This document shows, in pieces, positions 396 through 63,384 of a stretch of DNA of 64,000 nucleotides. A model generated the notes under the pieces. The model searched no databases and was not told the origin of the DNA. It was given only the letters and a program-made list of their open reading frames with translations. The position numbers were made by a program, and so were the translations under genes. Numbering within the stretch: the stretch's first letter is position 1; every line of letters starts with the position of its first letter. Source of the DNA: Naegleria gruberi (Eukaryota); the NCBI GenBank assembly GCA_000004985.1, contig GG738853.1; one strand, 5' to 3'.

Positions 396-1408
396 TTAAT
401 GATTGGATTGTTTTTCGGTAGAGCCAACATAGGTTTCTGATAATAAAAGGACGCCAATCGCAACCATTCCTGGTAAGTAAACGTTGAACATGCTTCTCTT
501 TTCAGATTTTTCATCTACTTGGCTATAACTTTCCCATGAATATCTAGTGAAAAAGCTCAAACTTAAAAAGCTAATGTTTAACAACAATACCAACAAGCTA
601 AAATTTTGTTTTCTGGCAATTATCATTACTTTAGTAATGGAATAAACTGAAACAAGAGCAAGAGCAGCCCCATAAATACATTGTCTTTGTAAATAGTTCA
701 ATAAATTTTCAATATTCTATTTAATCCTTACCTAAATGTGTGATATCCAAATACAAAGGTATCCAACATGATAGCAACCCCAACCAATACGTATAAATAG
801 TAGAACGCCGTGGATTTCCAGTCATTCCATCCAACCATTTTGAGTAATATATAAAAAGCAAAGACTGAGAATAATATAAAATTGTAATGGCCAGAAACAG
901 AATTAGGATGAATATTACAAGTATGATCTCCAATATATAATTTCAAGAATATTACTACAGAATATGAGCAATAATACCATGATGAAAATTGTAAAATTGC
1001 TCTTAAAGTTTCTTTCCAATTTCTGCAATGAGTAGAAGGAGAGTATTGTTTCTTATATGAATAAATTAAAGTTATAACTATTCCGAATAATGTTAATACT
1101 AAGAAGGAAGGAAATAAAAAGGTCTTTTTCAAATAAATTGCATTTGAAACTACTTGTTCTTTTTTCTCAAATCTATCCACTAAACAAACATCCACATAAT
1201 CATTATTATATTCAACCATGGATAACAATCTGCAAATTATTGTTAAACTCAAAATCCATTTTCAAAACACAACATACAAACTAGATATAATTAAAAGTCC
1301 ACTCAGAACTGTCAATACGTAATCAACCATATTTGCAATGTTTTCTTGATGTTGTAATGTAGGAGATGAAGAAGAAACGTCAATATTTACTCTATCAGTA
1401 GAACTCAT
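396..1408 (-). CDS. Multi-pass membrane protein of unknown family, 3 exons: complement(1278..1408, 732..1229, 396..684), about 305 aa
   Basis: ATG at 1408 (MSSTDRVNID...). Donor TT|GTATGT with acceptor tttgcag (intron 1230..1277, 48 nt). Second donor AG|GTAAGG with acceptor caaag (intron 685..731, 47 nt). These splices join the three ORF-track pieces 728..1252 and 396..701 in frame. The product has about 6-7 hydrophobic helices and no family motif I recognise. Confidence 0.5.
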
Positions 1409-1936
1409 CCAAGAAGCAGGTGTATTTGCTATTTATCATCACCCAATGAATTATCATACGATAATAATAACATTTAAATTATTAATTATTGAAAAATTCA
1501 TCATCACACCATTCCGGAATATGTTGTTATCCAAATAATAATAATAATAACATCATCATCCACACATCATCATCAAACCAGCAAACTTACGCGCCAAATT
1601 ACGAAGTATTTTACTCTTCCGAAAATTCATTCAATTTCCACGTTATCACGTTGTGCTATTTTTTTTGAGATTTAAGAAAGGAAATTTTGTAAAAATAATT
1701 GTTATCGACATCCTTTTTAAAATAGATAACAATAAACTTTGAACAAATCAATGAAATTATTAATTTGAAATTTAAGAATTTTTTCATTCCGTACCTTTGA
1801 GGTATTATCATTAATCTAATTGGAACTTGGAACATGAATCATATCAATTATTTATACTCAACTTAAGGGCGATACAATAGTTAGTAAATAATGATTATTA
1901 TTTATTGATCAATTCTCACATAACGTGCTAGATGAT

Positions 1937-2875
1937 TTACAACTTCTTGCATGTCTTTCTCTTGATACAAATCTTCTTCAAGATTGACTTGCAACACTTC
2001 TTCTTTCCACCAACCAATTTGAATTTCTTACAAATCTTCTTTCCCTTAGAACGTTTCAAACACTTCTTATAATACTTCTTCTTGATACATCTTGGTGGAA
2101 TTGTAATTGACTTGGCACAATACTTCTTCTTATTATATTTGACACATTTGGAGAGAGTCTTCTTGTGCTTACAGAACTTGATGGTCTTATGCTTGGCACA
2201 GAAGAATTTCTTCTTAATGAGACAACACTTCTTGAAAGATTTTCTTTCCTTACAGTATTTAACCTTCTTATACTTGGCACATTTCTTAGCCCAGGAGACA
2301 ATCTTGCACTTTTTAACATATCTACATTTGGCGACCTTCTTATTGTAAGAATCAACAGTGTACTTGTCGCAGACCTTCTTCTTTTCACACTTCTTGATTG
2401 GAACCTTCTTGAATTTCTTGCAGACCTTCTTAACACCCTTCTTGACGCACTTGTTGACAATCTTGTGCTTGGCACAGAATTTCTTGAAACCCTTCTTGAC
2501 GCAAATCTTCTTAGTTCCATAAGAATCACAAACTTTCCAGTGCTTCTTCTTGGCACATCCAACAGTCTTGTATGCATGCAAGACACACTTCTTTGTTGCC
2601 TTACTATACTTGTCACACTTGGAATATTTCTTATGTTTGAGACATTTACCAGCACCGACAATGGCATATTGATCACAGACCTTCTTTTGACCAACGAGTT
2701 TGTGTTTCAAACACTTCTTAATCCACTTGTGCTTTAAACATTTTCTCTTGCAAACCTTTGGCTTGTGATACTTGTCAACTACTGGAGGTTTGGTTTGATA
2801 GCTGTCGCTTGCTTGAACTGAAAGGATTGCAATCAACAATAGAATTGCAATTGAAACGATTATATTTGTTTTCAT
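1937..2875 (-). CDS. Secreted Lys/Cys-rich low-complexity protein, paralog A (312 aa, signal peptide MKTNIIVSIAILLLIAILSVQA)
   Basis: Real ATG at 2875 and TAA at 1937. About 35% Lys and 13% Cys in a repeating C-x-K-x-K-K pattern. It is about 94% nt identical to the + strand gene at 62251..63222. Confidence 0.75.
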   Translation of the reverse strand: MKTNIIVSIAILLLIAILSVQASDSYQTKPPVVDKYHKPKVCKRKCLKHKWIKKCLKHKLVGQKKVCDQYAIVGAGKCLKHKKYSKCDKYSKATKKCVLHAYKTVGCAKKKHWKVCDSYGTKKICVKKGFKKFCAKHKIVNKCVKKGVKKVCKKFKKVPIKKCEKKKVCDKYTVDSYNKKVAKCRYVKKCKIVSWAKKCAKYKKVKYCKERKSFKKCCLIKKKFFCAKHKTIKFCKHKKTLSKCVKYNKKKYCAKSITIPPRCIKKKYYKKCLKRSKGKKICKKFKLVGGKKKCCKSILKKICIKRKTCKKL

Positions 2876-3136
2876 TTTTTCTGTTTTGTTGATCTTGTAG
2901 TTTCAGAAAACTGAAGACAATTTAAACCTTTCGAATACCATTTCATTAGGGATAAAACTCAAAATTAGAAACTTGTAAGGTTCCAAATATGGAAAGAAAT
3001 TTGATTCATAATTTGATAAAATTTGATCCCTCCATTCGCTGAATGAACCAAAGTTTACAATAATAAAGTGTTTTCTTGTAATAAACGTATTGTAAACTAT
3101 TAAAGTTCCTTGAGACATAACTCTCAGTTGAAAGTA

Positions 3137-4627
3137 TTAATATTTCAATTTTGTGATATGTTTCGTATTTAAGAGAGCATCTTTCCCTTCCTTATCCATG
3201 TATTCCGAGAAAATCCTAAGTTTTTTCAAGTTTTTCATTTTAGTGATTGCAATTATTCCTTCATCACCAAATTTGTTCTCATCAACTTGTAGTATAGTTA
3301 ATTGCATCATTTCACTAATGTACTTTGCACCTTCATTACCAAACTCATTGTTACGTGCATTTAGATCAGTCAATTTTTTCAACATACTAATCGATCTAAT
3401 ACCACGATCTCCAATGCTGTTGAACCCAACATCAAGTTTTGTTAAGTGTTCCATTCTGCTTAGTAATTCAGCTCCATTATCATTAATTTGATTTTCTGAA
3501 ATATCGAGCATTGTTAAATGTTTCAATTTACTTATAAACTCAAAGCCATCATTTCCAAGACCTACAACTCCAAATTCTAACTTTTTCAAATGGTCCATTT
3601 TACCAATCATTGAAAAACTCTCGATATTCAAATCATTTCCACCAATATTTAGTTTTGATAATTTTTTCATGTTGTAAATATCTTTCGCCACCTCCTCATC
3701 AACATCATTATAGCTAACATTTAAATAAATCAATTGTTGCAGGTCGCTTAAGTGTTTCACTCCTACATTAGATAAATAATTTACGGAAATATCAAGTTTG
3801 GTCAGTTGTTTCAATTGACCAATAGATTTAGCGCCTTCATCATCAATATTGTTTCCGCTTATATCAAGTTTAGTTAATTGCTTCAAATCTTCAATTTGGT
3901 TTGATGATGATTTTTCTAATTTGTTGTACTGCACTTTGAGTATTATTAATTGTTTCATCTCACATATAAATTTGAACCCTTTTGAACGAATAGAGTTGTG
4001 AGAAATATCGAGATTAGTCAATTGGCCCAATTTGCTAATAATTTTTGATCCTTCCTCACCCATTCGACAATATCTAACATCTAGTTCAGTCAATTGCTTT
4101 AATAAACCAATCGCCTCAACTCCTTTCATTATTGGGTTGTCACTAATATTGAGAATAGTTAATTGTTTAAATTTACCAATTGGTTCAATATCATTAAAAG
4201 TGTGTTTGCTCAATTTTAATTCAGTTAATTTTGGCATCAATCCCACTAACTTCCAAAATTCATCTATGTTTGAAATGTTCTTAAAGCTAACACTTCCAAT
4301 ACATGCAAGAAATTGATTTGTCATTATTTGTTCCAAATCTATTTCTTTTTTAAATTTGAGAGACAATTTTGAATATCTCATCACAACATTAAACCACTGT
4401 TTTGAAATTAGACAACAAGTCTTGAGAATGAAAACAACATCAATAAAAGATAATATTTCATAACAAATATCATCAATAAATAATTCTTGGTTGTCATCTA
4501 CACATATTTCCAATTACATATAATAGGAGTGGTGGATTTATTACTAACCTCTTCTTGATGTCGTCCTTTTCGAAAAGGGATGATAATCTGTCACATGATC
4601 CGAATCGTCCAATAATCGTTTGCTCAT
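3137..4627 (-). CDS. F-box / RNI-type leucine-rich-repeat protein, 2 exons: complement(4549..4627, 3137..4497), about 479 aa
   Basis: Exon 1 is ATG(4627) MSKRLLDDSDHVTDYHPFSKRTTSRR. Donor G|GTTAGT, 51-nt intron 4498..4548, acceptor tgtgtag. Exon 2 begins DDNQELFIDDICYEILSFIDVVFILKTCCLISKQWFNVV (F-box consensus), followed by more than 12 LRRs of RNI type (LxxLxxLDISxNxIxDEGAKxI). The ORF-track start for this entry is a TTG. Confidence 0.7.
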
Positions 4628-5297
4628 TTTTTTTAGATTTTTATTTAATCCTTCGAAGTTATTTTTTCAAAACATATAATTAAGGAAATATTGTAATATT
4701 GAGCCAACCACCTAGTGTACTAGTAAAAACAACCTCGATCAATAAATTGATTATTTCAAACTACTCTAACCTTCAATACTTGTTTGCCTTCTCTCTTATT
4801 TATTTACAAATATAGCAATTAATTATTATTAATACAACAATTTAAAAAAAATGAAAAACCTTAAAACCATCACCAGTACTTCGCTCACTTTTTCGTCATC
4901 ACTCTTGCAGAAGAAGCAACAGCAGCAAATGAATATCATGATTGGCTTGCAAAACAACCTCGGAACGAAGGTTACACTGCTCAAAACCAAATACTGTTGT
5001 TCCCTCCACACAGCTAGATTTGGAGCATTGAACGATAGCATCAATGCTGCTATTGCTGCTACTGAGCAAGATAATTTCAATCACAAGACACAATCATCTT
5101 TAATTTTCCATCAACAGGCTTATCATCATTCTCCGAAGAATTTTCCTACAGAAAAAAAATTCTCAAACTCTAATCGTCGTTATCATCGAGGACAAGTTGC
5201 CTTTGGATTGGATAATAGTAGTAGTGTAAATACCAAATATAATATTGGATTGATAAGTAATAGTAGTGGAGCATTTGTTAGTAGAAATTATTCAAAA

Positions 5298-7035
5298 ATG
5301 ATGGGAGAGAAGAGAAAAGTTGTCGGAGCTATTGATCAGGGAACTACTTCGACGAGATTTATGTTGTTCGATGCTAGTGATATGAAGGAAGTGGCCTCTT
5401 ATCAAATTTTACATGAAAATCATTTTCCTAAACCTGGATGGGTTGAACAGTAAGTTGTTGTGGAATGAATTTTTATTTGAAATGGTATAGAGATCCTATT
5501 GAAATTTATACAAATACACTTGAGTGCATGACTAATGCATGTGAAAAATTAGAAGGAGAGGATTATGAAATTATTGGTATTGGTGTGACTAATCAGAGAG
5601 AAACAACAGTGTTGTGGGATTCAGAAACTGGAAAACCACTTTGTAAATCAATTGGTATGTTTTATATTCTATAGAAATGATTAATGAAAATAGTTTGGAA
5701 CGATACAAGAACAAGAGATTTGGTCGATTCCATTTGTAAATCAAAAGCTGGAGGTGACTACTCCAAATTTAGAGAAGTTTGTGGTCTTCCACTTTCCACA
5801 TATTTCAGTGCAGTTAAACTGAGATGGATGATTGACCATTATGATGAGGTAAAAAAAGCAGTCGATAAAGGAACTTGTATGTTTGGAACTGTTGACAGTT
5901 GGTTGATTTGGGTATGTACTAATATTGGAATTTAATTTTGTAAACTTCATTTCAGAATTTAACAGGTGGCCTGAAGGGTGGTATTCACATTACAGATGTT
6001 ACCAATGCCAGTAGAACCATGTTAATGAACTTGAAGACACTTAAATGGGATGATGATATGCTCAATCTCTTTGAAATTCCATCAGGTGTTAAACTTCCAA
6101 CCATCAAGAGTAGTGCTGAAGTTTATTCAAGTATTTCTAAGGAAGTTGTACAAAATCACCCTCTTTTAAGTGGAGTAGCCATTTCTGGAGTAAGTACTCT
6201 AATATTCAAAGTATAATAATATTTATTTCATCATATTCATAATATACAGTGTATAGGAGATCAACAAAGTGCCACTATTGGCCAAAAGTGTTTTAAAATT
6301 GGAGATACAAAGAATACATATGGAACAGGATGTTTCTTACTTATGAATTGCGGACATGAAATTGTTAAATCCAATCACGGATTATTATCAACAGTTCAAT
6401 ATCAACTAGGACCAAATGCTGCTCCAGTCTATGCCTTGGAAGGTTCTGTTGCAGTTTGTGGATCTGGTATTTCATGGTTGGAACATAATTTAAAACTCAT
6501 AGAAAATCCAGCAGAATCTGAAACACTTGCCAGAACAGTTGAAGATACTGGAGGTGTAGTTTTTGTTCCTGCCTTCTCTGGATTATATTGTCCATATTGG
6601 AGATCTGATGCACGTGGTACTATTGTTGGTATTACTCACTATACAAACTCTGCCCACATTGTTAGAGCCATGTTAGAAGCTGTATGTTTCCAAACACAAG
6701 AAGTACTTGAATCCATGGTGAAAGATAGTGGACTTGCTGTTACAAACTTGATGGTTGATGGTGGTATGACCAAGAATCAATTATTAATGCAACTTCAATC
6801 TGATATCAGTAGAAAGAAAGTTAAAGTTCCATCCTATCCTGAAACAACAGTATTAGGAGCTGCAATTTGTGCTGCATTTGGCGTTGGACATTTCAAGGAA
6901 ATCAAGGATATTCCACCATCTCCAAAAGATAAGATGTTAATATTCACTCCTCACATCTCTGAGCAAGAAACTGAACTCAAAATGAAGAGATGGAAGAAGG
7001 CCATTGAAAAGTCATTAAATTGGCATGAAGAATAA
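5298..7035 (+). CDS. GK: Glycerol kinase (FGGY family), 5 exons: 5298..5449, 5491..5654, 5694..5911, 5956..6189, 6250..7035, about 517 aa
   Basis: Strong collinear similarity to eukaryotic glycerol kinase: [93 protein letters not shown]. Introns of 41, 39, 44 and 60 nt with GTAAGT/GTATGT donors keep the frame. The open frame also extends upstream to 4851 (149 extra residues, poly-Q/Ser-rich), so the true start is either 5298 ([10 protein letters not shown]) or further upstream. Confidence 0.85.
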
Positions 7036-7557
7036 AGGATAGATGTTCTATAAGAAAGATCTTGGAAGAAAAAAGAGTTGATGGTTCTTTATTGTGTCAT
7101 TTTCAAGGCGCGATGATTGTTCAAGATGTAGTATATCCTTCTGCAAGGAACAGAGTTGATTCGATGATAACAGTCGTCGTGGGTACCACACTATTCGTTT
7201 GCGATCCGATTGTTGTAGTGGCCACAGTGATAGTAGTGGTAGAGAACATTTTGATAATAGATTGATATTCTTCAGTTTTTTTAATTTTGTTTTTTAATGA
7301 TAGTCGGAAAGTCAATACTCAAGCTTGAAAATACGTGAACAGCCAAACTATTCAGACATTTGGCAGGTAAACCAGTCAGGACATTTTTTAAAACTATTTT
7401 TAAACGTGATTTCAAAAAAACTAGTCGTTACGAAATAAATTAAAAAAAAAGCAAAAACACTTTAAGCTTTGCCAGCGAAAGATGAATATGAGCTTGAGAA
7501 TTTATTCATCATCAATAAACAAGTAAATTATCGTCCATCAATAATCTACTCGCAGTA

Positions 7558-7938
7558 TCAATACTTGGAGGCGCTCGATGGTTCATTACCTCCATCAAAC
7601 TTGTTGCCAAAATCGCTTTCTGTCATTGGTGTAGCAAATTTTATACTTTCTACCTTTTGAATCGCAACGTGGTGGTCATTGCCTTTAACAGAAAAACACC
7701 ACAAACCATCAACAACAATGGTGTGAGTAGTATCATCTTCTTCAACTACTACTACTACACTATTATTTGGTGTAAAATTTTGATTGTTTGTTGAGTGGGT
7801 GTTCATATTCAAGCAAAGTGGTGTGTTATTTGGTTTTTTTGGATGACGATTTTCACACACAGCACCAAGCAAACTATTCTCATTTGCCTTGCTGTGCTTG
7901 TGGTGTGGGAAATGAACCTCAAGGGTTTCGTATTGCAA
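7558..7938 (-). CDS. Hypothetical ORF (TTG at track start; first ATG gives about 82 aa, MNTHSTNNQNF...SSASKY)
   Basis: Open frame only. It has no recognisable domain, uses unusually GC-rich codons for this genome, and no upstream exons were found. Confidence 0.15.
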   Translation of the reverse strand: MQYETLEVHFPHHKHSKANENSLLGAVCENRHPKKPNNTPLCLNMNTHSTNNQNFTPNNSVVVVVEEDDTTHTIVVDGLWCFSVKGNDHHVAIQKVESIKFATPMTESDFGNKFDGGNEPSSASKY

Positions 7939-8421
7939 GGATTACTATTGCATTGTGTCGCTTTCAAGTGCTTTTTAGTGTTGGAGGTCGATTTCTTTGG
8001 CGAAAGGCCTTTTCATTTTACCATTCTGATTCAGTGCGTCAATCAATGAGGATGAATTCAATACCTTATGAAATATTTGAAAGAAATTGCAGAGAATGAG
8101 TGGGAATAGTTCAGATTTTGAAGAAATATTGTTGGATGGTCATTTGTAAATATTCCATTTTTGAAACTTTTGCAATCTGAATATATCAAAAAAGAAGGTT
8201 GTTTAAAATTGGTTTTTGTGAACACTATAAAAATGAGAAAGTAGACGAAAAGTTTCCAAAGTTCGAGATCTCGGGAGATAAAAGTATTTTTGATTAATCC
8301 AATATGCATTATTTCACATCTTCTAGCCAGTACAATTACGTCGATCTATTTGTCAATCTTCAAATTGAAAACTGAAGATGCCAACAATAAACATCATATT
8401 GTGAATAAAATCAAAAGGAAT

Positions 8422-8494
8422 CGCCCACCGTGGGGGTCGAACCCACGACCACAAGGTTAAGAGCCTTGCGCTCTACCGACTGAGCTAGACGGGC
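8422..8494 (-). tRNA. tRNA-Lys(CUU): tRNA-Lys (anticodon CUU), 73 nt
   Basis: Reverse complement reads GCCCGTCTAGCTCAGTCGGTAGAGCGCAAGGCTCTTAACCTTGTGGTCGTGGGTTCGACCCCCACGGTGGGCG. It has a canonical cloverleaf, anticodon loop CTCTTAA, and an oligo-T run immediately 3' on the coding strand. Confidence 0.9.
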
Positions 8495-8586
8495 AGATAT
8501 TAAGGATTTTATGTCACACTAATCATTTTTCCCTTACAGATAATCTACCATTTCTTAATTATATAAATGAGGGAAAATATGTTTAT

Positions 8587-10065
8587 TTACAAAAGATTGA
8601 ACATGAGATACACCACAATGGTAAGAAGAATATACACAGGACCATTGTTGGTAAAAACACTATTTGACTCACTAACAAGAGCTCTTACATCTAATGTATT
8701 GTTTTCATCCATGTAGCCATCAAATTCCAAAACCATTTGATCCATTAAAGAATCAACATTTACAGATCTGGCCATCATTGTGGATAAACTAGCATCTGTA
8801 GTTACTCCATTCTTATCCACAACAATAGAAATTGGACAAGGCATATCGAGAATGCAACCACATTTCAATCCTTCCCAACTGTTCACAAATCTCTGAGCTA
8901 GGAATGTGAATAAATTATTGGCTACTCCAGTGTCAGGACTTGCATATTTCAGAGTGATAGACTTGTCGAGGAATATTCTGGCAGGTGCCACAACTGCGTA
9001 ATGTTTACAATAGAGACGAGTGGAAGCAAATGCAACACTGGAAACTTGTGGTTGAAAAACAGCAGCTCTGTACAAGTTGAGTTTTTCAAGGTTTGCTTGA
9101 TCATTGCTTCTTACCATTGGATTTCCTTTTGGAAGAAGAGCAATCGGTGCTTTTTGTTTCAATTTAGCATGAATCTCATCCAATGCCAATGACTGAGTCA
9201 ATTGACCATTATTGGCCAAATCAGGGGCCATGTATGGAGTGCAATTTAGAGCACGTGCCATTGCAACAGCTAACAATCTATTATCAGAACCATTTACCAA
9301 AGTTTGAGTTTGAGCAGTTCCTCCAAGGGCTTTCAAATTAGCTGCAGTATTTTGACAAGTTCTACCTGCCAATGTCTTGTTTGTACTAATGATATAGGAT
9401 GTAACAACGTTATCTGATTGATCCATGTCAACAATACCAAAATCTCTGACAGTCATACATGATTTTCCATCAAGTGCAGTGCCAAGTGCTGGAACTGGTG
9501 GATTAAAGAAGGAACCAGGATCATTGGTTGCTTTTTCCTTAATAATTTGACTGATTGATGTTTGAACAGCTTCAAAAAATTGCTTTCCATTGCATGAGGC
9601 GAATTGACCAAAAATATCATTTGCTCCATCAATACCATTGACACAATTACCTTGAGCAAGTGAATTACTGGAATCAATTAAAGTAAGAGAACCAGCATTT
9701 GTACCAAACCACAATCCAACAATTGCTGTTTTTGGAAAGACAGGAACAGTTGGTTTGATTGCTGGTTGAGTATTTTGAGTAATTACCAAAGGATTATAAA
9801 TCATGAAGGATCTTGTCTCTGGAACGAAAATAACACCCTCAACAAATGATTGTTGATCAGCAGCAGTCATGACACAAGGGCCATTGGCAGGATTGACAGC
9901 TCTCAAAATATAAGGAGTTGCCAATCCTTGAGGAGTGAGTGGATTTGGAGGAACAATAAGAGCACAATCAGGATTAGCACCCTTTACAATTCTGATATAA
10001 TGTACAAGAATAATGGCAAGACAAATACTTGTCTTGAGTGAGTTGGAAACGATCATGTTGAGCAT
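8587..10065 (-). CDS. Secreted Gly/Asn/Thr/Ala-rich protein with an N-terminal signal peptide and a C-terminal hydrophobic GPI-anchor-like tail (about 492 aa), family unknown
   Basis: First ATG in a good context is at 10065 (MLNMIVSNSLKTSICLAIILVHYIRIVKG is signal-like). The ORF-track start at 10215 is upstream read-through. The C-terminus ...SNSVFTNNGPVYILLTIVVYLMFNLL* is a short polar stretch followed by a hydrophobic end, as in a GPI signal. GC content is higher than in neighbouring genes. Confidence 0.6.
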   Translation of the reverse strand: MLNMIVSNSLKTSICLAIILVHYIRIVKGANPDCALIVPPNPLTPQGLATPYILRAVNPANGPCVMTAADQQSFVEGVIFVPETRSFMIYNPLVITQNTQPAIKPTVPVFPKTAIVGLWFGTNAGSLTLIDSSNSLAQGNCVNGIDGANDIFGQFASCNGKQFFEAVQTSISQIIKEKATNDPGSFFNPPVPALGTALDGKSCMTVRDFGIVDMDQSDNVVTSYIISTNKTLAGRTCQNTAANLKALGGTAQTQTLVNGSDNRLLAVAMARALNCTPYMAPDLANNGQLTQSLALDEIHAKLKQKAPIALLPKGNPMVRSNDQANLEKLNLYRAAVFQPQVSSVAFASTRLYCKHYAVVAPARIFLDKSITLKYASPDTGVANNLFTFLAQRFVNSWEGLKCGCILDMPCPISIVVDKNGVTTDASLSTMMARSVNVDSLMDQMVLEFDGYMDENNTLDVRALVSESNSVFTNNGPVYILLTIVVYLMFNLL

Positions 10066-10438
10066 TTGTGAATGGTATTCAATGGTTTGATTTGAATAAC
10101 AACAGTTTGTTTTTGTTTTTTTTTGATATTGTTCACTAGTCCAATAAAGTGCCGACAATTTAACAGAAATTGCACAAATCATGTATGTTATCAAAAAGGA
10201 AAAGTAGGTTCTCATAAAATTGAATGAAATAAAGGATGAAAGGTTGAGAGATATACGAATATTAACGAATGAGGAGTTTGGATAATGATCTATCGCGAAA
10301 AACTTTCTCTATCTTTATAATTGATTGATTTGGTACACACAGATCCATCATAAATCATTGCAAGTAATAAAAACCTAATTTTCATGTTGAATCTGCAATA
10401 AAACCGAAGATGCAAAAGAGAAAATAAAAAACATGAAT

Positions 10439-10511
10439 CGCCCACCGTGGGGGTCGAACCCACGACCACAAGGTTAAGAGCCTTGCGCTCTACCGACTGA
10501 GCTAGACGGGC
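10439..10511 (-). tRNA. tRNA-Lys(CUU): tRNA-Lys (anticodon CUU), second identical copy
   Basis: 73/73 identity to the 8422..8494 copy, in the same orientation, and followed by an oligo-T run. Only about 5 nt of flank on each side is shared between the copies. Confidence 0.9.
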
Positions 10512-10835
10512 TACATTCACCATACTTGTATTTACTTTATGAGCGAACACTTTCGTTTTCCATATTTTGGTTATGGAGAGTGGCAAAGTTTCTCTAAGGC
10601 AACCCAAGAAGAATTTGATAGTTTAAGCTTTTAAATTTTGAATTTCCAAAATAGCCTGGTCACTCCAAATAAACATTGGATATTGAAGAAAGTTCAATCC
10701 AACTTCTAAAAATGTGAAAATACCTTTTATAAAATTAGTCCTTGATAACATTCTTCAATTGTTAATTCTCTATTCTAATCTTTCATCTCTTGAAAACGAA
10801 ACACATTAAAATACAAATCGAAAAGAAACAAAAGA

Positions 10836-13015
10836 ATGTCCATAGGAGCCATCTCTGGTTATCAGTTCACTGATGTCGACAATCCACCATCTGAGAAAGA
10901 ACGTCATCACTTTCGTAAGAAATTTCATCGTAACAAGGAAACAGATGAAACTGTTTCAAGAACTTTCATTCCAGATACATTAGAACCCAAAGTAAATGTC
11001 CTATCTCATTGTTACATGTTCAAAATCTTTGGTTGGAATACATGGCTAATTGTCATTGGATGTATTGGTGCGATGGGATATGGTGTCATTCCAGTCATTT
11101 GTCAGTACCTTCTGGGATCTCTTATTGATACATTTGCTTCACCAACAGTGACTAGTGAAAGTGCTGGAAGAGCTGTAAACAAATTGAGTCTTCAATTGTT
11201 AATTCTAGCAATTAGTGGTAAGTTCTCTATTGTATATTAAACTAAACTTGTCAAAGGTGCCATTGCCTTTGCTATTCATCACTGTTTCATGCAATTGGCC
11301 AATGCAAGACTTGGTACTGCAATGAGAAAAGCTTACTTGGGTTCATTATCCAAACAAGAAATGAATTATTTCGACATTAAGAAAATTGGATCATTGACAG
11401 TTGTGTTGAGCGAAGATATTCCAAAAATTCAAGATGTTTATACGAATGAATTTTTTGCATTCATGCAAGAGATTATTCAGTTTGTGGTTGGCTTTATTCT
11501 TTCATTGACTGTGAATTATCAAATGGCTTTGATTTTATTTTCAACTGGTAAGTATTTCGATCACTTTCGTCCCATTTAGAATATATTTTGTAGCTCCCTT
11601 GACATTTTTTCTACATACCATTCTCTCAACTATTGCCACCCTTCTTACAAGGAAAATCAACAAGTGCACTGATAATTCAGCTGCCGCTGCCAATGAAATT
11701 TGTTCCTGCATGAAAACTATTCGAAGCATGGCTTCAGAAGAAAAGGAAGCAAAGAAATTTAGTAGGGATTTGAGAAAGATTGATACTTTGGGTTTTTATA
11801 TGGGAATTAATTATGCTACATTTCTTGGAATATCTGTTTTTGTAACATGGGCAACTATTTCACTTGGTTTTTGGTAAGTTTATTGTTTTAAAGTTTCCTA
11901 TAAAAGGAAAAAGGTACGGTGGACATCAAATTGTTGATCAAAAGTCAACTATTGGTTCTATTTTTAAAGTATTTGGAATGATGTTTCTTGGAATTGGTAA
12001 GTTGTTTATTGAAATTCTGTGAAAATTACAATTTTCGAATATAGTTGCTCTTATTCGTTCTGCAACTTTCTTTCCCAGATATGGTAAAGCATATGCTTCA
12101 GAAACTACTCTTCTAAAGGTACTATTAAGAAAACCTGCCATTCCATTCAAAGGTGGACAAAAACTTGATAAAGTTGAAGGTGAAATTGTACTAAAGGATG
12201 TTGAATTTGCCTATCCTTCTCGACCAAACATTAATGTCATGCAAGAATTCAATCTACACATCAAATCTGGACAAACTATTGCCTTGGTAGGACCATCAGG
12301 TTCTGGAAAATCAACTATTGTTGGTTTATTAGAAAGATTCTATACTCCAAATAAGGGAAATATCACAATTGACGGTGTTGACGTTTCAGAATTGGACCCA
12401 ATGTGGCTTCACCGTCATTGTTTAGGAATTGTATCTCAAGAACCTGTTCTCTTTGCTGGATCCATCAAATATAACATTGCCTATGCATTACTCGGACCTG
12501 ACGAAGACATGAATAGGTTTACATCAGTTTCCATGGAACAAATCGAAAGTGTAGCCAAGAGAGCAAACGCACACAACTTTATTATGGAACTGCCCGATAA
12601 ATATGACACTCTATTGGGTGAGAAGGGAGTTTCTCTTTCGGGAGGTCAGAAACAGAGAATTGCCATTGCACGAGCTCTACTGCAAGATCCCAAAATTTTA
12701 CTTTTGGACGAAGCAACTTCTGCACTTGATACAGAATCTGAAAGATTAGTCCAAACAGCCCTTGATGAATTGATGAAAGGCAGAACGAGCATTTGTATTG
12801 CTCACAGGTTGACTACCATTGTGAATGCAGATATGATTTGTGTGTTGGTGAGGGGAAAAATTGTTGAGAAGGGTACACATCAAGAATTAATTCAAATTAA
12901 GGATGGTGTGTATAGAAATTTAGCTCAAAAGCAAATGATGATTGGATCACAAACTGATGAAGAACAAGAAGGAATTTCAAGAGTAGAAAATATTGGAGAT
13001 GACAACGATGAGTAA
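10836..13015 (+). CDS. ABC transporter, ABCB (MDR/TAP-like) half-transporter (TMD then NBD), 5 exons: 10836..11217, 11257..11547, 11594..11873, 11914..11996, 12045..13015, about 668 aa
   Basis: The NBD has Walker A GPSGSGKST, Q-loop, ABC signature LSGGQKQRIAIARAL, Walker B ILLLDEATSALD and the H-loop. The upstream TMD has ABCB-type helices. Introns of 39, 46, 40 and 48 nt (GTAAGT donors) restore the frame across the four ORF-track fragments. Confidence 0.8.
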
Positions 13016-15574: not shown

Positions 15575-15785
15575 ACTTTTGCTTCTTTATCCCTTAATCT
15601 TTTTGATAAGACGACCATTTTCAAATATTTATTGTTAGTATGATGTCTAGTTTCTATGGTAAAATTTTTGTGCAACTCCAAATAGACTCTATAAAGATAA
15701 TCAATAAAGATAACGCTGACCTCAAATATTCCAGCTGAAATACCTTGAAGATTTGAAGAGCTACTAAAACATTTAATTTCCAAAA

Positions 15786-15903
15786 GACTACAGCACCACA
15801 GGTTCCCAAGTTGTCTCCAACCTCAGTACTGATGTGGCTCGACGATGCTTAACTTCTCAAATCGGACGGGATGAGGTGCATTCATCGTGATATGGCCGTA
15901 GCC
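15786..15903 (-). rRNA. 5S rRNA: 5S ribosomal RNA gene (118 nt), dispersed copy 1
   Basis: Reverse complement GGCTACGGCCATATCACGATGAATGCACCTCATCCCGTCCGATTTGAGAAGTTAAGCATCGTCGAGCCACATCAGTACTGAGGTTGGAGACAACTTGGGAACCTGTGGTGCTGTAGTC matches the universal 5S consensus (box A/C region, loop E). A T-run terminator follows (plus-strand caaaa at 15781-15785). Confidence 0.85.
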
Positions 15904-45716: not shown

Positions 45717-45782
45717 CTCCCATGCCGGGAATTGACCCTCCTGGGTGAAAGCCAGGTATCCTAGCCATTGGACTACACGGGA
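45717..45782 (-). pseudogene. tRNA-Glu(UUC) pseudogene: 66 nt, with a 6-nt deletion removing the 5' half of the T stem
   Basis: Identical to the intact tRNA-Glu at 63313..63384 except that ACCCGG is missing (GGGAATTGA-CCCTCCTGG against GGGAATTGAACCCGGACCTCCTGG). About 45 bp of 5' flank, including a TATA-like element, is also shared. Confidence 0.6.
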
Positions 45783-45822: not shown

Positions 45823-45991
45823 GCTGAAAACTCTCAGATTTTAGAAAACCTCGAGTTCCCCTCTCAAAATAAGACTCAAAAGCCTTAAAAGAATGGTTAT
45901 ACGATCTTGGTACCTGGTAATAAGTACCATCACTGATATTTATCGAAGTGATGAAAATTTGGGTGTACCCAAACGCCTTAATAAAACAAAA

Positions 45992-46109
45992 GACTACAGC
46001 ACCACAGGTTCCCAAGTTGTCTCCAACCTCAGTACTGATGTGGCTCGACGATGCTTAACTTCTCAAATCGGACGGGATGAGGTGCATTCATCGTGATATG
46101 GCCGTAGCC
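45992..46109 (-). rRNA. 5S rRNA: 5S ribosomal RNA gene (118 nt), dispersed copy 2
   Basis: 118/118 identical to the copy at 15786..15903. Its flanking sequence is unrelated, and a T-run terminator follows. Confidence 0.85.
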
Positions 46110-46202: not shown

Positions 46203-46268
46203 AAAAAGGAGTAGCAAATCTAGGTTTCGATCCTAGGACCTATGGGTTATGAGCCCATCGCGCTGCGC
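46203..46268 (-). pseudogene. Initiator-type tRNA-Met (CAU)-like gene with a truncated D-arm (66 nt); probable pseudogene
   Basis: Reverse complement AGCAAATTGGCGCAGCGCGATGGGCTCATAACCCATAGGTCCTAGGATCGAAACCTAGATTTGCTA. Initiator hallmarks are present: a perfect 7-bp acceptor stem, a GGG/CCC anticodon stem, the CAU anticodon, and an A54/A60 T-loop (GATCGAAAC). But only 3 nt lie between the D-stem halves, so about 6 nt of the D-loop are missing. Confidence 0.5.
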
Positions 46269-46860
46269 CAATTTGCTTTTCATTTACCTATTAAAATTTA
46301 GTCCAACTTTCAAGCGGTTTAACATGGCCTTTGAGACTTGATCATATTTCTGATTTGTAAGTGTTTCTATATCCATAGTTATCCAATTACATTATTCAAC
46401 ATTCTATCAATCCTCTCTAATCCTAAACAATCACTTCGAATATTAGTTGACTGCCAAGCTCGAATTTGATTCTTAGTCAACAAAATCAATTTGACCGGTT
46501 TAAAAAGTATTTTCCGGTCCTCTCTTCCACCAATCACTCTCTTTACTGACTCGAAAGACGACGTACCTCACAGTTCATACAGTCAAAGACTGTAGCGGGA
46601 CAGTCGCCATATTCCTGGCAGGCTTCCCGTCTAGTAAAATTAATTGAAAAGTTTCAAATTGTTGTAAATCACAACTACACTGTAAATTTGATTCTTTATT
46701 GTTTTAAAGTTGTGCATTTGAAACTCGTTCTTTACAAAGAAGGAATTCTAATATTAAGGTAAAACTAACTTTAAATAATATTTTCAAATACTATACACTT
46801 AATTAAATTTGAAAATATTATTTATATAAATAATAATGAAAAAAAATAAACAATTGGTAT

Positions 46861-58352: not shown

Positions 58353-58423
58353 GCATTAGTAGTGTAACGGTATCATACCAGCCTTCCAAGCTGGTGACCC
58401 GGGTTCGACTCCCGGCTAATGCA
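58353..58423 (+). tRNA. tRNA-Gly(UCC): tRNA-Gly (anticodon UCC), 71 nt
   Basis: GCATTAGTAGTGTAACGGTATCATACCAGCCTTCCAAGCTGGTGACCCGGGTTCGACTCCCGGCTAATGCA. Anticodon loop CTTCCAA. Close to canonical eukaryotic tRNA-Gly-UCC. T-run at 58431-58434. Confidence 0.85.
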
Positions 58424-58652: not shown

Positions 58653-59027
58653 GCTACTTAATCTTCACAAAAGAAGAATAAGAAGAATAAGAAAATTATG
58701 AAGGAATTTGTGAGAAAAAACATGTAAACAAATGGTTTCATCTATTGACGAGGATGAGTATGAACAATATTCAATCAATTCTAAATTCTAAATATTTAAT
58801 AAATTGTTTAACGAAATGGATTGATTGTCTGTTGATGGTTTTTGGAGTGCATGAGAGGATTTACACCAGCTGAGCTCTATCTATCTCTTGGATTATTAAG
58901 GCGAGGAATCTACTAACCAATACCCTCAGAAATGGTTTCCAACAACTTGTAAAAAGCACTAATCAATCTTCAAGAAACGGTGCCATTCTTAAAGACATGT
59001 TGATATCAGCTAAACTAAAATTGAATT

Positions 59028-59098
59028 GCATTAGCCGGGAGTCGAACCCGGGTCACCAGCTTGGAAGGCTGGTATGATACCGTTACACTACTAATGCT
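59028..59098 (-). tRNA. tRNA-Gly(UCC): tRNA-Gly (anticodon UCC), inverted identical copy
   Basis: Exact reverse complement of the 58353..58423 gene. About 28 bp of 5' flank (CATATTTTTTGATCATCTT(T/A)CAAGAA) and about 15 bp of 3' flank are duplicated as well. Confidence 0.85.
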
Positions 59099-63312: not shown

Positions 63313-63384
63313 CTCCCATGCCGGGAATTGAACCCGGACCTCCTGGGTGAAAGCCAGGTATCCTAGCCATTGGACTACACGGGA
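63313..63384 (-). tRNA. tRNA-Glu(UUC): tRNA-Glu (anticodon UUC), 72 nt
   Basis: Reverse complement TCCCGTGTAGTCCAATGGCTAGGATACCTGGCTTTCACCCAGGAGGTCCGGGTTCAATTCCCGGCATGGGAG. A 7-bp acceptor stem (one G-U pair), anticodon loop CTTTCAC, and a T stem-loop CCGGG-TTCAATT-CCCGG. Confidence 0.85.

Follow-up and report, generated by a model that had tools for sequence, protein, structure and literature searches.

A predicted surface-protein gene of likely lateral origin between two identical tRNA-Lys(CUU) genes of Naegleria gruberi

Results

Gene content of the tRNA-Lys(CUU) interval

Two tRNA-Lys(CUU) genes with one protein-coding gene between them lie on the same strand of a 64-kb stretch of the Naegleria gruberi genome, which was analyzed at its full length and is called the window below. 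The features of the locus are as follows.

8413..8416, minus strand: putative Pol III terminator of copy 1, TTTT, 5 nt beyond the tRNA 3' end (read from the sequence)
8422..8494, minus strand: tRNA-Lys(CUU), downstream copy (ARAGORN; Rfam RF00005, 66.4 bits)
8587..10065, minus strand: predicted CDS, 492 aa, intron-less, for a secreted Cys-rich protein with a hydrophobic (GPI-like) C-terminal tail (ORF; homology)
8590..8637, minus strand: hydrophobic GPI-signal-like tail, codons 477-492, VYILLTIVVYLMFNLL (by eye and hydropathy)
8776..9978, minus strand: conserved extracellular domain, codons 30-430 (homolog alignment)
9979..10065, minus strand: signal-peptide-like N-terminus, codons 1-29, MLNMIVSNSLKTSICLAIILVHYIRIVKG (hydropathy; outside the region conserved with bacterial homologs)
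10107..10288, minus strand: conserved promoter-proximal or 5' UTR block (62% over 184 nt versus the related locus L001)
10426..10431, minus strand: putative Pol III terminator of copy 2, TTTTTT, 7 nt beyond the tRNA 3' end (read from the sequence)
10439..10511, minus strand: tRNA-Lys(CUU), upstream copy (ARAGORN; Rfam, 66.4 bits)

As a preliminary description of this DNA had held, the two tRNA-Lys genes are 73 nt each, 100% identical and co-oriented, and ARAGORN, Rfam and an alignment agree on this; their starts are 2017 bp apart, and the score of either copy compares with a Rfam gathering score of 29 bits for tRNA. The gene on the complement of 8587..10065 is the only long ORF between them, which was also the earlier reading. 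The downstream tRNA-Lys begins 92 nt past the stop codon of this gene (a spacer of 91 nt), and the upstream one ends 374 nt 5' of its ATG (a spacer of 373 nt). Both copies contain an internal A box TAGCTCAGTCGG and B box GGTTCGACCCC, are predicted to form a cloverleaf and have a T-run no more than 12 nt from the 3' end, as predicted for functional tRNA genes. Ahead of each T-run is an ATTC trailer (8418-8421 in copy 1 and 10435-10438 in copy 2), and on the tRNA strand these 4 nt at the 3' side are the only flank common to both copies; a comparison of the 5' flanks found no common sequence. Because the 5' flanks are unrelated, neither the tRNA-Lys copies nor the region can be regarded as recently duplicated, in agreement with the initial view that the small amount of shared flank speaks against a simple tandem duplication.

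Rfam detects 11 Pol III genes within the 64-kb window, some of them in small clusters, and at this density one would expect some intergenic spacers that follow each other to contain Pol III genes. Identical copies are the rule among the Pol III genes of the window, which also include two identical tRNA-Gly(UCC) genes and, at a distance of 30 kb from each other, two identical 5S rRNA genes; there are a tRNA-Glu gene and a tRNA-Glu pseudogene as well. The copies within the Gly and Glu families have 33-40 nt of 5' flank in common, whereas the Lys pair has none. Two of the eight pairs of neighboring tRNAs in the window carry the same anticodon, more than would be produced by random shuffling of isoacceptors (~1 in 30-40 per pair, by a rough binomial estimate). 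This excess suggests that tRNA genes are in some cases copied locally, and the Lys pair could have arisen in this way long ago.

We searched the interval between the tRNAs for integrase, transposase or other recombinase domains (ORFs and Pfam) and positions 7000-12500 for further repeats, LTRs or target-site duplications, and neither search returned any. Nor does the locus have the layout of a tRNA with a partial 3' att repeat, both tRNA-Lys copies being full-length. The interval is adjoined by the genes for an FGGY kinase, which is split by an intron, and an ABC transporter; like these, the other neighbors are eukaryotic (LRR, clathrin light chain, CCT and myosin genes), and no other virus-like gene was seen among the neighboring genes in the window. 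We reject an assembly artefact or contamination in view of the contiguous eukaryotic context of the gene over 64 kb, together with the 38% GC.

Composition and codon usage

Comparison with the 27 other ORFs of the window shows that the gene, which had been described as visibly less AT-rich than its neighbors in codon composition, is so in total GC (0.379 versus 0.336 ± 0.027; rank 3 of 28) but not at the third codon position, where it is average (GC3 of 0.256 versus a mean of 0.258; rank 14 of 28). Its relative synonymous codon usage (RSCU) correlates with that of the other ORFs at r = 0.925 (rank 7 of 28). The gene is thus no outlier in either respect, and its synonymous codon usage is native relative to the window ORFs. 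It is codon positions 1 and 2 that carry the excess GC (0.409 at position 2, rank 2 of 28), as they do in the two CCT genes, and the excess can therefore be explained by amino-acid composition and not by codon bias linked to expression. High expression, as in the CCT genes, had been proposed as an alternative cause, and this proposal comes nearer to the result than the cassette does; the GC shift is indeed of the size found in CCT, but amino-acid composition accounts for it.

The encoded protein

The 492-aa ORF aligns without gaps to the N. gruberi predicted protein P0001, with 484 of 492 residues identical (98%). In its conserved domain of ~400 aa, 8 Cys and the motif D213-x-D-Q-S-D-N219 are invariant, and the AF2 pLDDT of this domain is 75. 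Profile searches of Pfam, NCBIfam and PHROG gave no family match, and no PDB or fold match was found for the domain. It is therefore still correct to call the family unrecognized; homologs exist, yet they are unnamed, and our literature search found no description of the family.

A signal-peptide-like start and a GPI-like tail had been noticed before, and both can be made out by eye and by hydropathy and are conserved in the ortholog P0002 and the eukaryotic transcript P0008; the GPI-like tail is found as well in a second eukaryotic transcript (P0003) and in two viral proteins (P0241 and P0244). The tail has 16 residues with a KD mean of 2.31 and lies behind S/N/G-rich small and polar spacer residues. 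On the bacterial side of the tree a C-terminal hydrophobic tail is present in only 1% of proteins, and, as far as the sequences indicate, the combination of signal peptide and C-terminal tail is specific to the eukaryote/virus side. The protein resembles GPI-anchored surface glycoproteins of protists in its signal-like N-terminus, its Cys-rich body with N-x-S/T sites, and its ending, in which a small-residue stretch and a polar spacer are followed by the 16-residue hydrophobic end with no cytoplasmic tail; it differs in that none of the known families of anchored proteins is related to its domain. These features suggest that the protein is probably GPI-anchored, and the DxDQSDN domain may possibly serve in extracellular, Ca2+-dependent binding.

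Distribution and phylogeny of the family

A homology search with the 492-aa protein, which the preliminary description had recommended, recovered homologs in Ktedonobacteria, giant-virus contigs and eukaryotes. The family comprises 1051 representatives of clusters at 50% identity. In GTDB genomes it occupies at least 545 loci, mostly in Ktedonobacteria, and it is also found in Acidobacteriota, actinomycetes, phage-like contigs, giant-virus contigs and eukaryotes. The bacterial members belong to several phyla, with multiple paralogs per genome, and their gene neighborhoods vary from genome to genome (PLD, PolB, PurH, kinase, S9 peptidase). On a phage-like contig (L110), the family member is embedded in an array of 27 tRNAs. 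The giant-virus-type carriers are an 814-kb contig, on which Pox_VLTF3, ankyrin and chitin synthase genes are also present, a second contig of 306 kb, and GVMAG contigs of IMG/VR. Among eukaryotes, members are found in the chytrid Physocladia obscura and in poly(A)-tailed transcripts (L082 and L084), and one eukaryotic copy (L113) has introns; among the matches listed there is no named homolog from the many well-sequenced eukaryotic groups.

Once the Naegleria-type sequences and P0008 are set aside, Ktedonobacteria supply the best matches, at 50-52% identity, whereas identity to the viral members is 38-42%. A scan of metagenomes for closer Naegleria loci returned homologs at 44-51% only, which is the bacterial range. 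In neighbor-joining (NJ) trees with 100 bootstraps, the window protein groups with P0001, these two with P0002, and these three with P0008, each time with 100% support. The sister of the Naegleria and P0008 clade is a group rich in giant viruses in 49 of 100 bootstraps (Dayhoff-6 recoding), and bacteria are excluded from the subtree nearer to this clade in 87-92 of 100. Profile affinity does not discriminate between the two sides, with 527 bits for a bacterial HMM and 522 bits for a eukaryote/virus HMM. The signals for a donor thus differ: raw identity favors Ktedonobacteria, and the NJ trees favor the giant-virus-rich sister group.

It is also evident that the nearest relatives beyond the gene's own lineage are non-eukaryotic and that its distribution in eukaryotes is patchy, and on these sequence comparisons lateral transfer of the gene is likely. 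We reject a recent transfer from Ktedonobacteria in view of the native codons, the ortholog of 75% identity and the eukaryotic sister P0008 with its 100% support. Because the gene is fully ameliorated and common to at least two to three related eukaryotic lineages, transfer was not recent, and we infer that any transfer is old and unconnected with the tRNA flanks. The suspicion that the gene is foreign is accordingly upheld in part, in that its family is centered on Ktedonobacteria and occurs in giant viruses too, but any foreign origin would be an old one, separate from the tRNAs around it.

A related locus without flanking tRNA-Lys genes

Comparison with a related locus was made on one short contig of 2.8 kb (L001), which bears an ortholog with 75% amino-acid and 81.5% nucleotide identity to the window gene. 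In the 1002 bp before and the 312 bp after this ortholog, ARAGORN and Rfam find no tRNA-Lys; at this one locus the gene is therefore present without tRNA-Lys flanks. Upstream of the gene, the promoter-proximal block has a core at 10221-10260 with 85% identity to L001, and homology stops ~150 bp short of the upstream tRNA-Lys; a low-stringency comparison of the outer flanks gave no match outside the 184-nt block. Rfam detects a tRNA T-arm-like relic on L001 at 363 bp upstream of the ATG, and the window tRNA is at 374 bp, which suggests that this spacer may long have hosted tRNA genes. Intron-containing tRNAs called on L001 by ARAGORN under relaxed settings are spurious, with 'introns' of 138-336 nt, and Rfam sees only the T-arm-like fragment there. 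Two further eukaryotic copies (L112 and L113) also have no flanking tRNAs.

Discussion

We consider it most likely, with a probability of roughly 0.75, that the locus is ordinary N. gruberi chromosome, in which a surface-protein gene with native codons and an old lateral origin lies between separately placed copies of tRNA-Lys(CUU). Each tRNA-Lys would be a complete Pol III unit and a separately placed member of a multi-copy tRNA-Lys(CUU) family, whose 100% identity would come from purifying selection, and probably gene conversion, acting on all isoacceptor copies. Lateral transfer would have brought the gene into the heterolobosean lineage at a time when N. gruberi and the organisms of L001 and P0008 had not yet separated, and the gene would since have taken on the codon usage of its host along with a signal peptide of eukaryotic type and a C-terminal anchor signal. 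Signal peptide and membrane-anchor tail are gained repeatedly on the eukaryote/virus side of the family, and the tRNAs appear to be independent of the gene's arrival. Dispersed tRNA and 5S genes of Saccharomyces and Dictyostelium are likewise present as identical isoacceptor copies in intergenic spacers, and the window resembles them in its complete genes with A and B boxes and T-runs, in identical copies with unrelated flanks, and in having several Pol III genes per 64 kb with small clusters and pseudogene relics. It differs in that no retroelement is seen beside the window tRNAs, and in that its Gly and Glu families share a 5' flank of 33-40 nt, a feature that the Lys pair does not have.

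The same arrangement could be read as a mobile or excisable unit with the tRNA-Lys genes as its ends, produced by tRNA-linked integration or subject to pop-out or duplication driven by the direct repeats, and we regard this as very unlikely. The repeats are indeed direct, identical and co-oriented with the gene at a distance of 2017 bp, the gene's family is mainly bacterial and viral, and one member sits within the tRNA array of a phage-like contig; moreover, the absence of tRNA-Lys flanks from the L001 ortholog means that the flanks have changed since divergence. In prokaryotic tRNA-linked islands, an integrase inserts at the 3' end of a tRNA gene and leaves attL/attR direct repeats, and the window is similar to these in having tRNA direct repeats on either side of a gene whose family is mostly bacterial, but it has a eukaryotic host, two full tRNAs, no integrase, native codons and an ortholog without the repeats. 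Both repeats are whole tRNA genes with their own terminators and unrelated 5' flanks, and at 73 nt they are short for use as substrates of homologous recombination. Furthermore, neither LTR nor target-site duplication nor transposase accompanies the locus, GC3 and RSCU are native, and the gene is older than the split from the L001 organism, where it is present without the tRNAs. The proposal of an insertion or excision cassette, or of a recombination hotspot, had been the favored reading of the preliminary description, and these results do not support it: the two tRNAs are complete, no recombinase, LTR or target-site duplication was found, the codons are native, and the ortholog lacks tRNA-Lys.

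The origin of the gene itself can be viewed in other ways. Capture from, or exchange with, a giant virus of Naegleria-like amoebae, by which the gene would be either a viral surface-protein gene that was domesticated or the one from which the viral copies came, seems unlikely to us, even with family members on giant-virus-type contigs (814 kb, 306 kb and GVMAG) whose proteins have a eukaryote-type signal peptide and hydrophobic tail. The NJ trees point the same way, with a virus-rich nearest subtree (49/100) and no bacteria in the nearer subtree (92/100), but support for this sister relationship is modest and distance trees are prone to long-branch and compositional attraction; identity is lower to the viral proteins (38-42%) than to Ktedonobacteria (50-52%), the profile scores are equal between the groups (527 versus 522 bits), and no further virus-like gene is nearby in the window. 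Giant viruses are known to infect Naegleria, and 3.1% of the genes of Naegleriavirus are shared with its host, but endogenized viral genomes have not been seen in this amoeba (PMC11043551). The gene is comparable with lateral genes of amoebae and with Naegleriavirus-host sharing (PMC11043551) in its patchy occurrence across bacteria, giant viruses and protists, its lack of introns in Naegleria and its high similarity to soil bacteria; it differs from these in being fully ameliorated and in being found in at least two to three related eukaryotic lineages. An ancestral eukaryotic gene, inherited vertically with many losses and passed from eukaryotes to bacteria and viruses, appears highly improbable. 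Members do exist in two distant supergroups, Discoba (Naegleria) and Opisthokonta (Physocladia), and in several more eukaryotes, one of them with introns, but the family is far more diverse in bacteria (at least 545 loci, several phyla, multiple paralogs per genome), the matches listed include no named homolog from well-sequenced eukaryotic groups, and 50-52% identity between Naegleria and Ktedonobacteria would be very high for an extracellular protein that has been diverging since the origin of eukaryotes.

It is conceivable, though rather doubtful, that several of these elements are combined, so that a surface gene exchanged between virus and amoeba lies in a spacer with turnover of Pol III genes, tRNA-Lys here and the relic of a different tRNA at L001. 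Dispersed tRNA genes in gene-dense unicellular eukaryotes often mark rearrangement breakpoints or landing sites of retroelements. If such an exchange is true, the locus would be a first case in which a gene related to giant viruses has become fixed in a chromosome of Naegleria, the tRNAs would mark an insertion site prone to rearrangement, and the gene would give an entry to an uncharacterized extracellular fold of Ktedonobacteria, phages, giant viruses, chytrids and heteroloboseans.

With the locus read as ordinary chromosome, the tRNA bracket itself matters little, except that it shows how dispersed identical Pol III genes, in a protist with a compact genome, can look like the termini of a mobile element. 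The gene has some interest of its own as a member of a large family (more than 1000 clusters at 50% identity) that is unnamed and has no solved structure or fold relative, and that spans bacteria, phage-like contigs, giant viruses and several eukaryotic lineages. The family could add to the few documented heterolobosean cases of gene exchange between amoebae and bacteria or giant viruses, and its domain is a widespread surface domain of soil microbes and a candidate for functional assignment.

Two complete tRNA-Lys genes flank a single coding region

The tRNA-Lys(CUU) pair reported in the preliminary description was recovered at the same coordinates, with identical 73-nt copies, both on the minus strand, and one long ORF between them:

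8422-8494, minus strand: tRNA-Lys(CUU), ARAGORN and Rfam, 66.4 bits (gathering score 29)
8587-10065, minus strand, complement(8587..10065): the single long ORF between the copies, 492 aa
10439-10511, minus strand: tRNA-Lys(CUU), ARAGORN and Rfam, 66.4 bits (gathering score 29)

The tRNA genes are spaced 2017 bp start to start and lie 374 and 92 nt from the CDS. Each is followed a few bases downstream by its own T-run (TTTT and TTTTTT), and, as far as sequence can tell, both are shown to be complete and each to be a transcription unit in its own right. The only common flank is a 4-nt trailer, ATTC (tRNA strand), and the 5' flanks are unrelated, in agreement with the earlier view that this is not a simple tandem duplication.

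That description further proposed a tRNA-flanked insertion or excision unit, or a tRNA-mediated recombination hotspot. This is not supported. No recombinase or transposase domain, LTR, target-site duplication, or repeat other than the tRNAs was found in the interval between the tRNA-Lys genes; both repeats are whole, separately terminated tRNA genes, unlike the full tRNA and incomplete 3' repeat that integrative elements leave; the composition is native; and an ortholog exists without tRNA-Lys. Of the four features that define tRNA-linked integrative islands, three are absent. The arrangement functions as dispersed tRNA genes do in other compact eukaryotic genomes. It is ordinary, even if 73-nt direct repeats could in principle allow rare deletion of the gene between them.

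Other Pol III genes in the window

The 64 kb hold 9 tRNA-type and 2 5S genes, grouped in small clusters, and Pol III genes are thus expected to turn up in one intergenic spacer after another. Identical copies are the norm within the window. The genes include:

15785-15903, minus strand: 5S rRNA
45717-45782, minus strand: tRNA-Glu(UUC) copy with a 6-nt T-arm deletion, probably a pseudogene
45991-46109, minus strand: 5S rRNA, identical to the first and 30 kb from it
46211-46277, minus strand: tRNA-Met with an initiator-type T loop (GATCGAAAC)
58353-58423, plus strand: tRNA-Gly(UCC)
59027-59097, minus strand: tRNA-Gly(UCC), identical to and convergent with the former, 600 bp apart
63313-63384, minus strand: intact tRNA-Glu, 17.6 kb from the Glu pseudogene

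Four of the Pol III genes (Pro, Glu pseudogene, 5S and Met) cluster within 800 bp. The flanks of the 5S copies are unrelated, and each copy adjoins tRNA genes (Leu in one case; Pro, the Glu pseudogene and Met in the other). Because the two lie far apart beside tRNA genes, the 5S genes of this genome are scattered and intermingled with tRNA genes.

Same-anticodon neighbours make up 2 of 8 neighbour pairs, above random assortment (by a rough estimate, 1 in 30-40 per pair), and local tRNA gene copying therefore does occur. The Gly copies have in common about 33 nt of near-identical 5' flank and the trailer ATTCAATTTTA. The Glu pseudogene and the intact tRNA-Glu share about 40 nt of 5' flank at about 80% identity, which suggests either a family-specific upstream sequence or a copying unit including a leader of about 40 nt. 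The Lys pair shares no 5' flank, whereas the Gly and Glu pairs share 33-40 nt, so the Lys copies are not recent duplicates of one another. Identity of the tRNA copies would be kept up by selection and gene conversion, and the tRNA-Lys genes would be independent of the arrival of the 492-aa gene.

Composition and genomic setting

A contaminant origin of the region was considered and rejected in favor of a native chromosomal region from N. gruberi or a strain very close to it, because the 492-aa protein matches an N. gruberi predicted protein at 484 of 492 residues without gaps and the window's remaining ORFs are typically eukaryotic: an LRR protein, an intron-split FGGY kinase, an ABC transporter, TMEM151, clathrin light chain, two CCT subunits, myosin I, NatB, ALG11 and CNOT11.

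The window is about 32% GC. Compared with its 27 other long ORFs (ranks out of 28), the 492-aa ORF is less AT-rich in total GC (0.379 vs 0.336 ± 0.027; rank 3), as had been claimed, but its GC3 is average (0.256 vs 0.258; rank 14), and its relative synonymous codon usage correlates with that of the pooled other ORFs at r = 0.925 (rank 7). The excess sits in the second codon position (0.409, rank 2) and the first, so it reflects amino-acid composition. The suggested parallel with the CCT genes is real for total GC (0.375 and 0.370), not as an account of the shift. GC, GC3 and codon usage relative to these ORFs give no compositional sign of recent foreign origin.

A predicted secreted protein of an unnamed family

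The 492-aa protein has no match among Pfam, NCBIfam, PHROG or PDB sequences, which bears out its designation as a protein of unrecognised family; a literature search also found no paper describing the family. Its conserved domain (residues ~30-430) contains eight invariant cysteines and an invariant D-x-D-Q-S-D-N motif. Judged from its sequence, the product has the features expected of a surface protein that is secreted, rich in disulfides and anchored at its C-terminus; the earlier "secreted GPI-type" label would fit as regards secretion and anchoring, and GPI would be the form of the anchor. An extracellular binding or enzymatic role may be envisaged, in which the acidic DxDQSDN loop may bind metal.

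Ahead of the annotated ATG the reading frame continues without a stop for 50 codons (10066-10215, minus strand), up to an ATG at 10215. The 492-aa model is preferred to this longer one, because in L001 a stop closely precedes the ortholog's start codon and because the extension would take the signal-like segment away from the N-terminus.

The family comprises 1051 cluster representatives (50% identity clusters, E ≤ 1e-3). GTDB genomes hold at least 545 loci, mostly in Ktedonobacteria (Thermogemmatispora, Ktedonobacter, Dictyobacter), often as several paralogues, and the remainder in Acidobacteriota, actinomycetes and one Gloeobacterales MAG. Eukaryotic members are proved by two poly(A)-tailed transcripts (L082 and L084), by two proteins of the chytrid Physocladia obscura and by an intron-bearing copy. 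The last, at 8061-9392 in contig L113 (Logan SRR32476547; 45.6% GC), is split into three exons by two introns and has RRM, WD40 and UBD neighbours; in at least one eukaryote, therefore, the family has been resident for enough time to acquire introns.

Several GVMAGs in IMG/VR carry members, as do contigs L085 (ENA contig_9784, 814 kb) and L086 (JGI Ga0485806_000012, 306 kb), which look like giant-virus genomes from their content: they are intron-less, gene-dense and 24-28% GC, and the neighbours of their family members include Pox_VLTF3, ankyrin-repeat, chitin synthase (these three in L085), HSP90, Ras-like GTPase and SNF2 helicase genes.

A short signal-like segment at the N-terminus is typical of members from eukaryotes and viruses, 26% of which end in a hydrophobic C-terminus. 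Among proteins of the bacterial side only 1% have such a tail, and most carry a longer charged N-terminus ahead of the membrane segment. Two tandem domains of ~400 aa per polypeptide occur in several eukaryotic members, including Physocladia obscura, and in one high-GC bacterial member (P0003-P0006, P0009, P0128; P0007).

In the 58% GC phage-like contig L110 (IMG/VR UViG_3300021404_000006; terminase-like ORF at 7101-8771), a 496-aa member (4686-6176) lies within 27 co-oriented tRNA genes, 23 upstream and 4 downstream (1048-6926). This second, independent tRNA-flanked case is probably a coincidence.

A related locus and the origin of the gene

An ortholog on Logan contig L001 (2772 bp, 37% GC) shows 75% amino-acid and 81.5% nucleotide identity across the CDS, and a promoter-proximal block is conserved (window 10107-10288 vs L001 807-972; 40-nt core at 85%). 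No tRNA-Lys is present in L001 in the 1002 bp before or the 312 bp after the ortholog. The gene with its promoter is therefore older than the split between the two organisms, and the flanking spacers have since changed in tRNA content. A T-arm-like fragment in L001 (~565-640, plus strand; GGGGGTTCGATTCCCCC, then TTTT) precedes the ortholog's ATG by 363 bp, near the 374 bp of the window's upstream tRNA-Lys; it is not Lys-like, has no recognisable 5' half, and may be what is left of another tRNA gene that occupied this spacer. The eukaryotic copies in L112 and L113 have no adjacent tRNA.

In NJ trees (393-398 columns, 100 bootstraps; amino acids or Dayhoff-6 recoding), the window protein groups with its N. 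gruberi match, then with the L001 ortholog, then with P0008, a homologue from a eukaryotic transcript, each with 100% support. Bacteria are absent from the subtree nearer to this clade in 87/100 amino-acid bootstraps and 92/100 Dayhoff-6 bootstraps, and that subtree is a giant-virus-rich group in 49/100. By contrast, raw identity of the Naegleria protein is highest to Ktedonobacteria (50-52%, vs 38-42% to viruses), and it scores equally with HMMs of the bacterial group (527 bits) and the eukaryote/virus group (522 bits). An old lateral transfer into the heterolobosean lineage, from a bacterium or a giant virus, thus appears likely. The gene resembles both other laterally acquired amoebal genes and genes shared between viruses and hosts, and is a new example, from an unnamed family, of a patchily distributed surface-protein gene that was probably acquired by lateral transfer.
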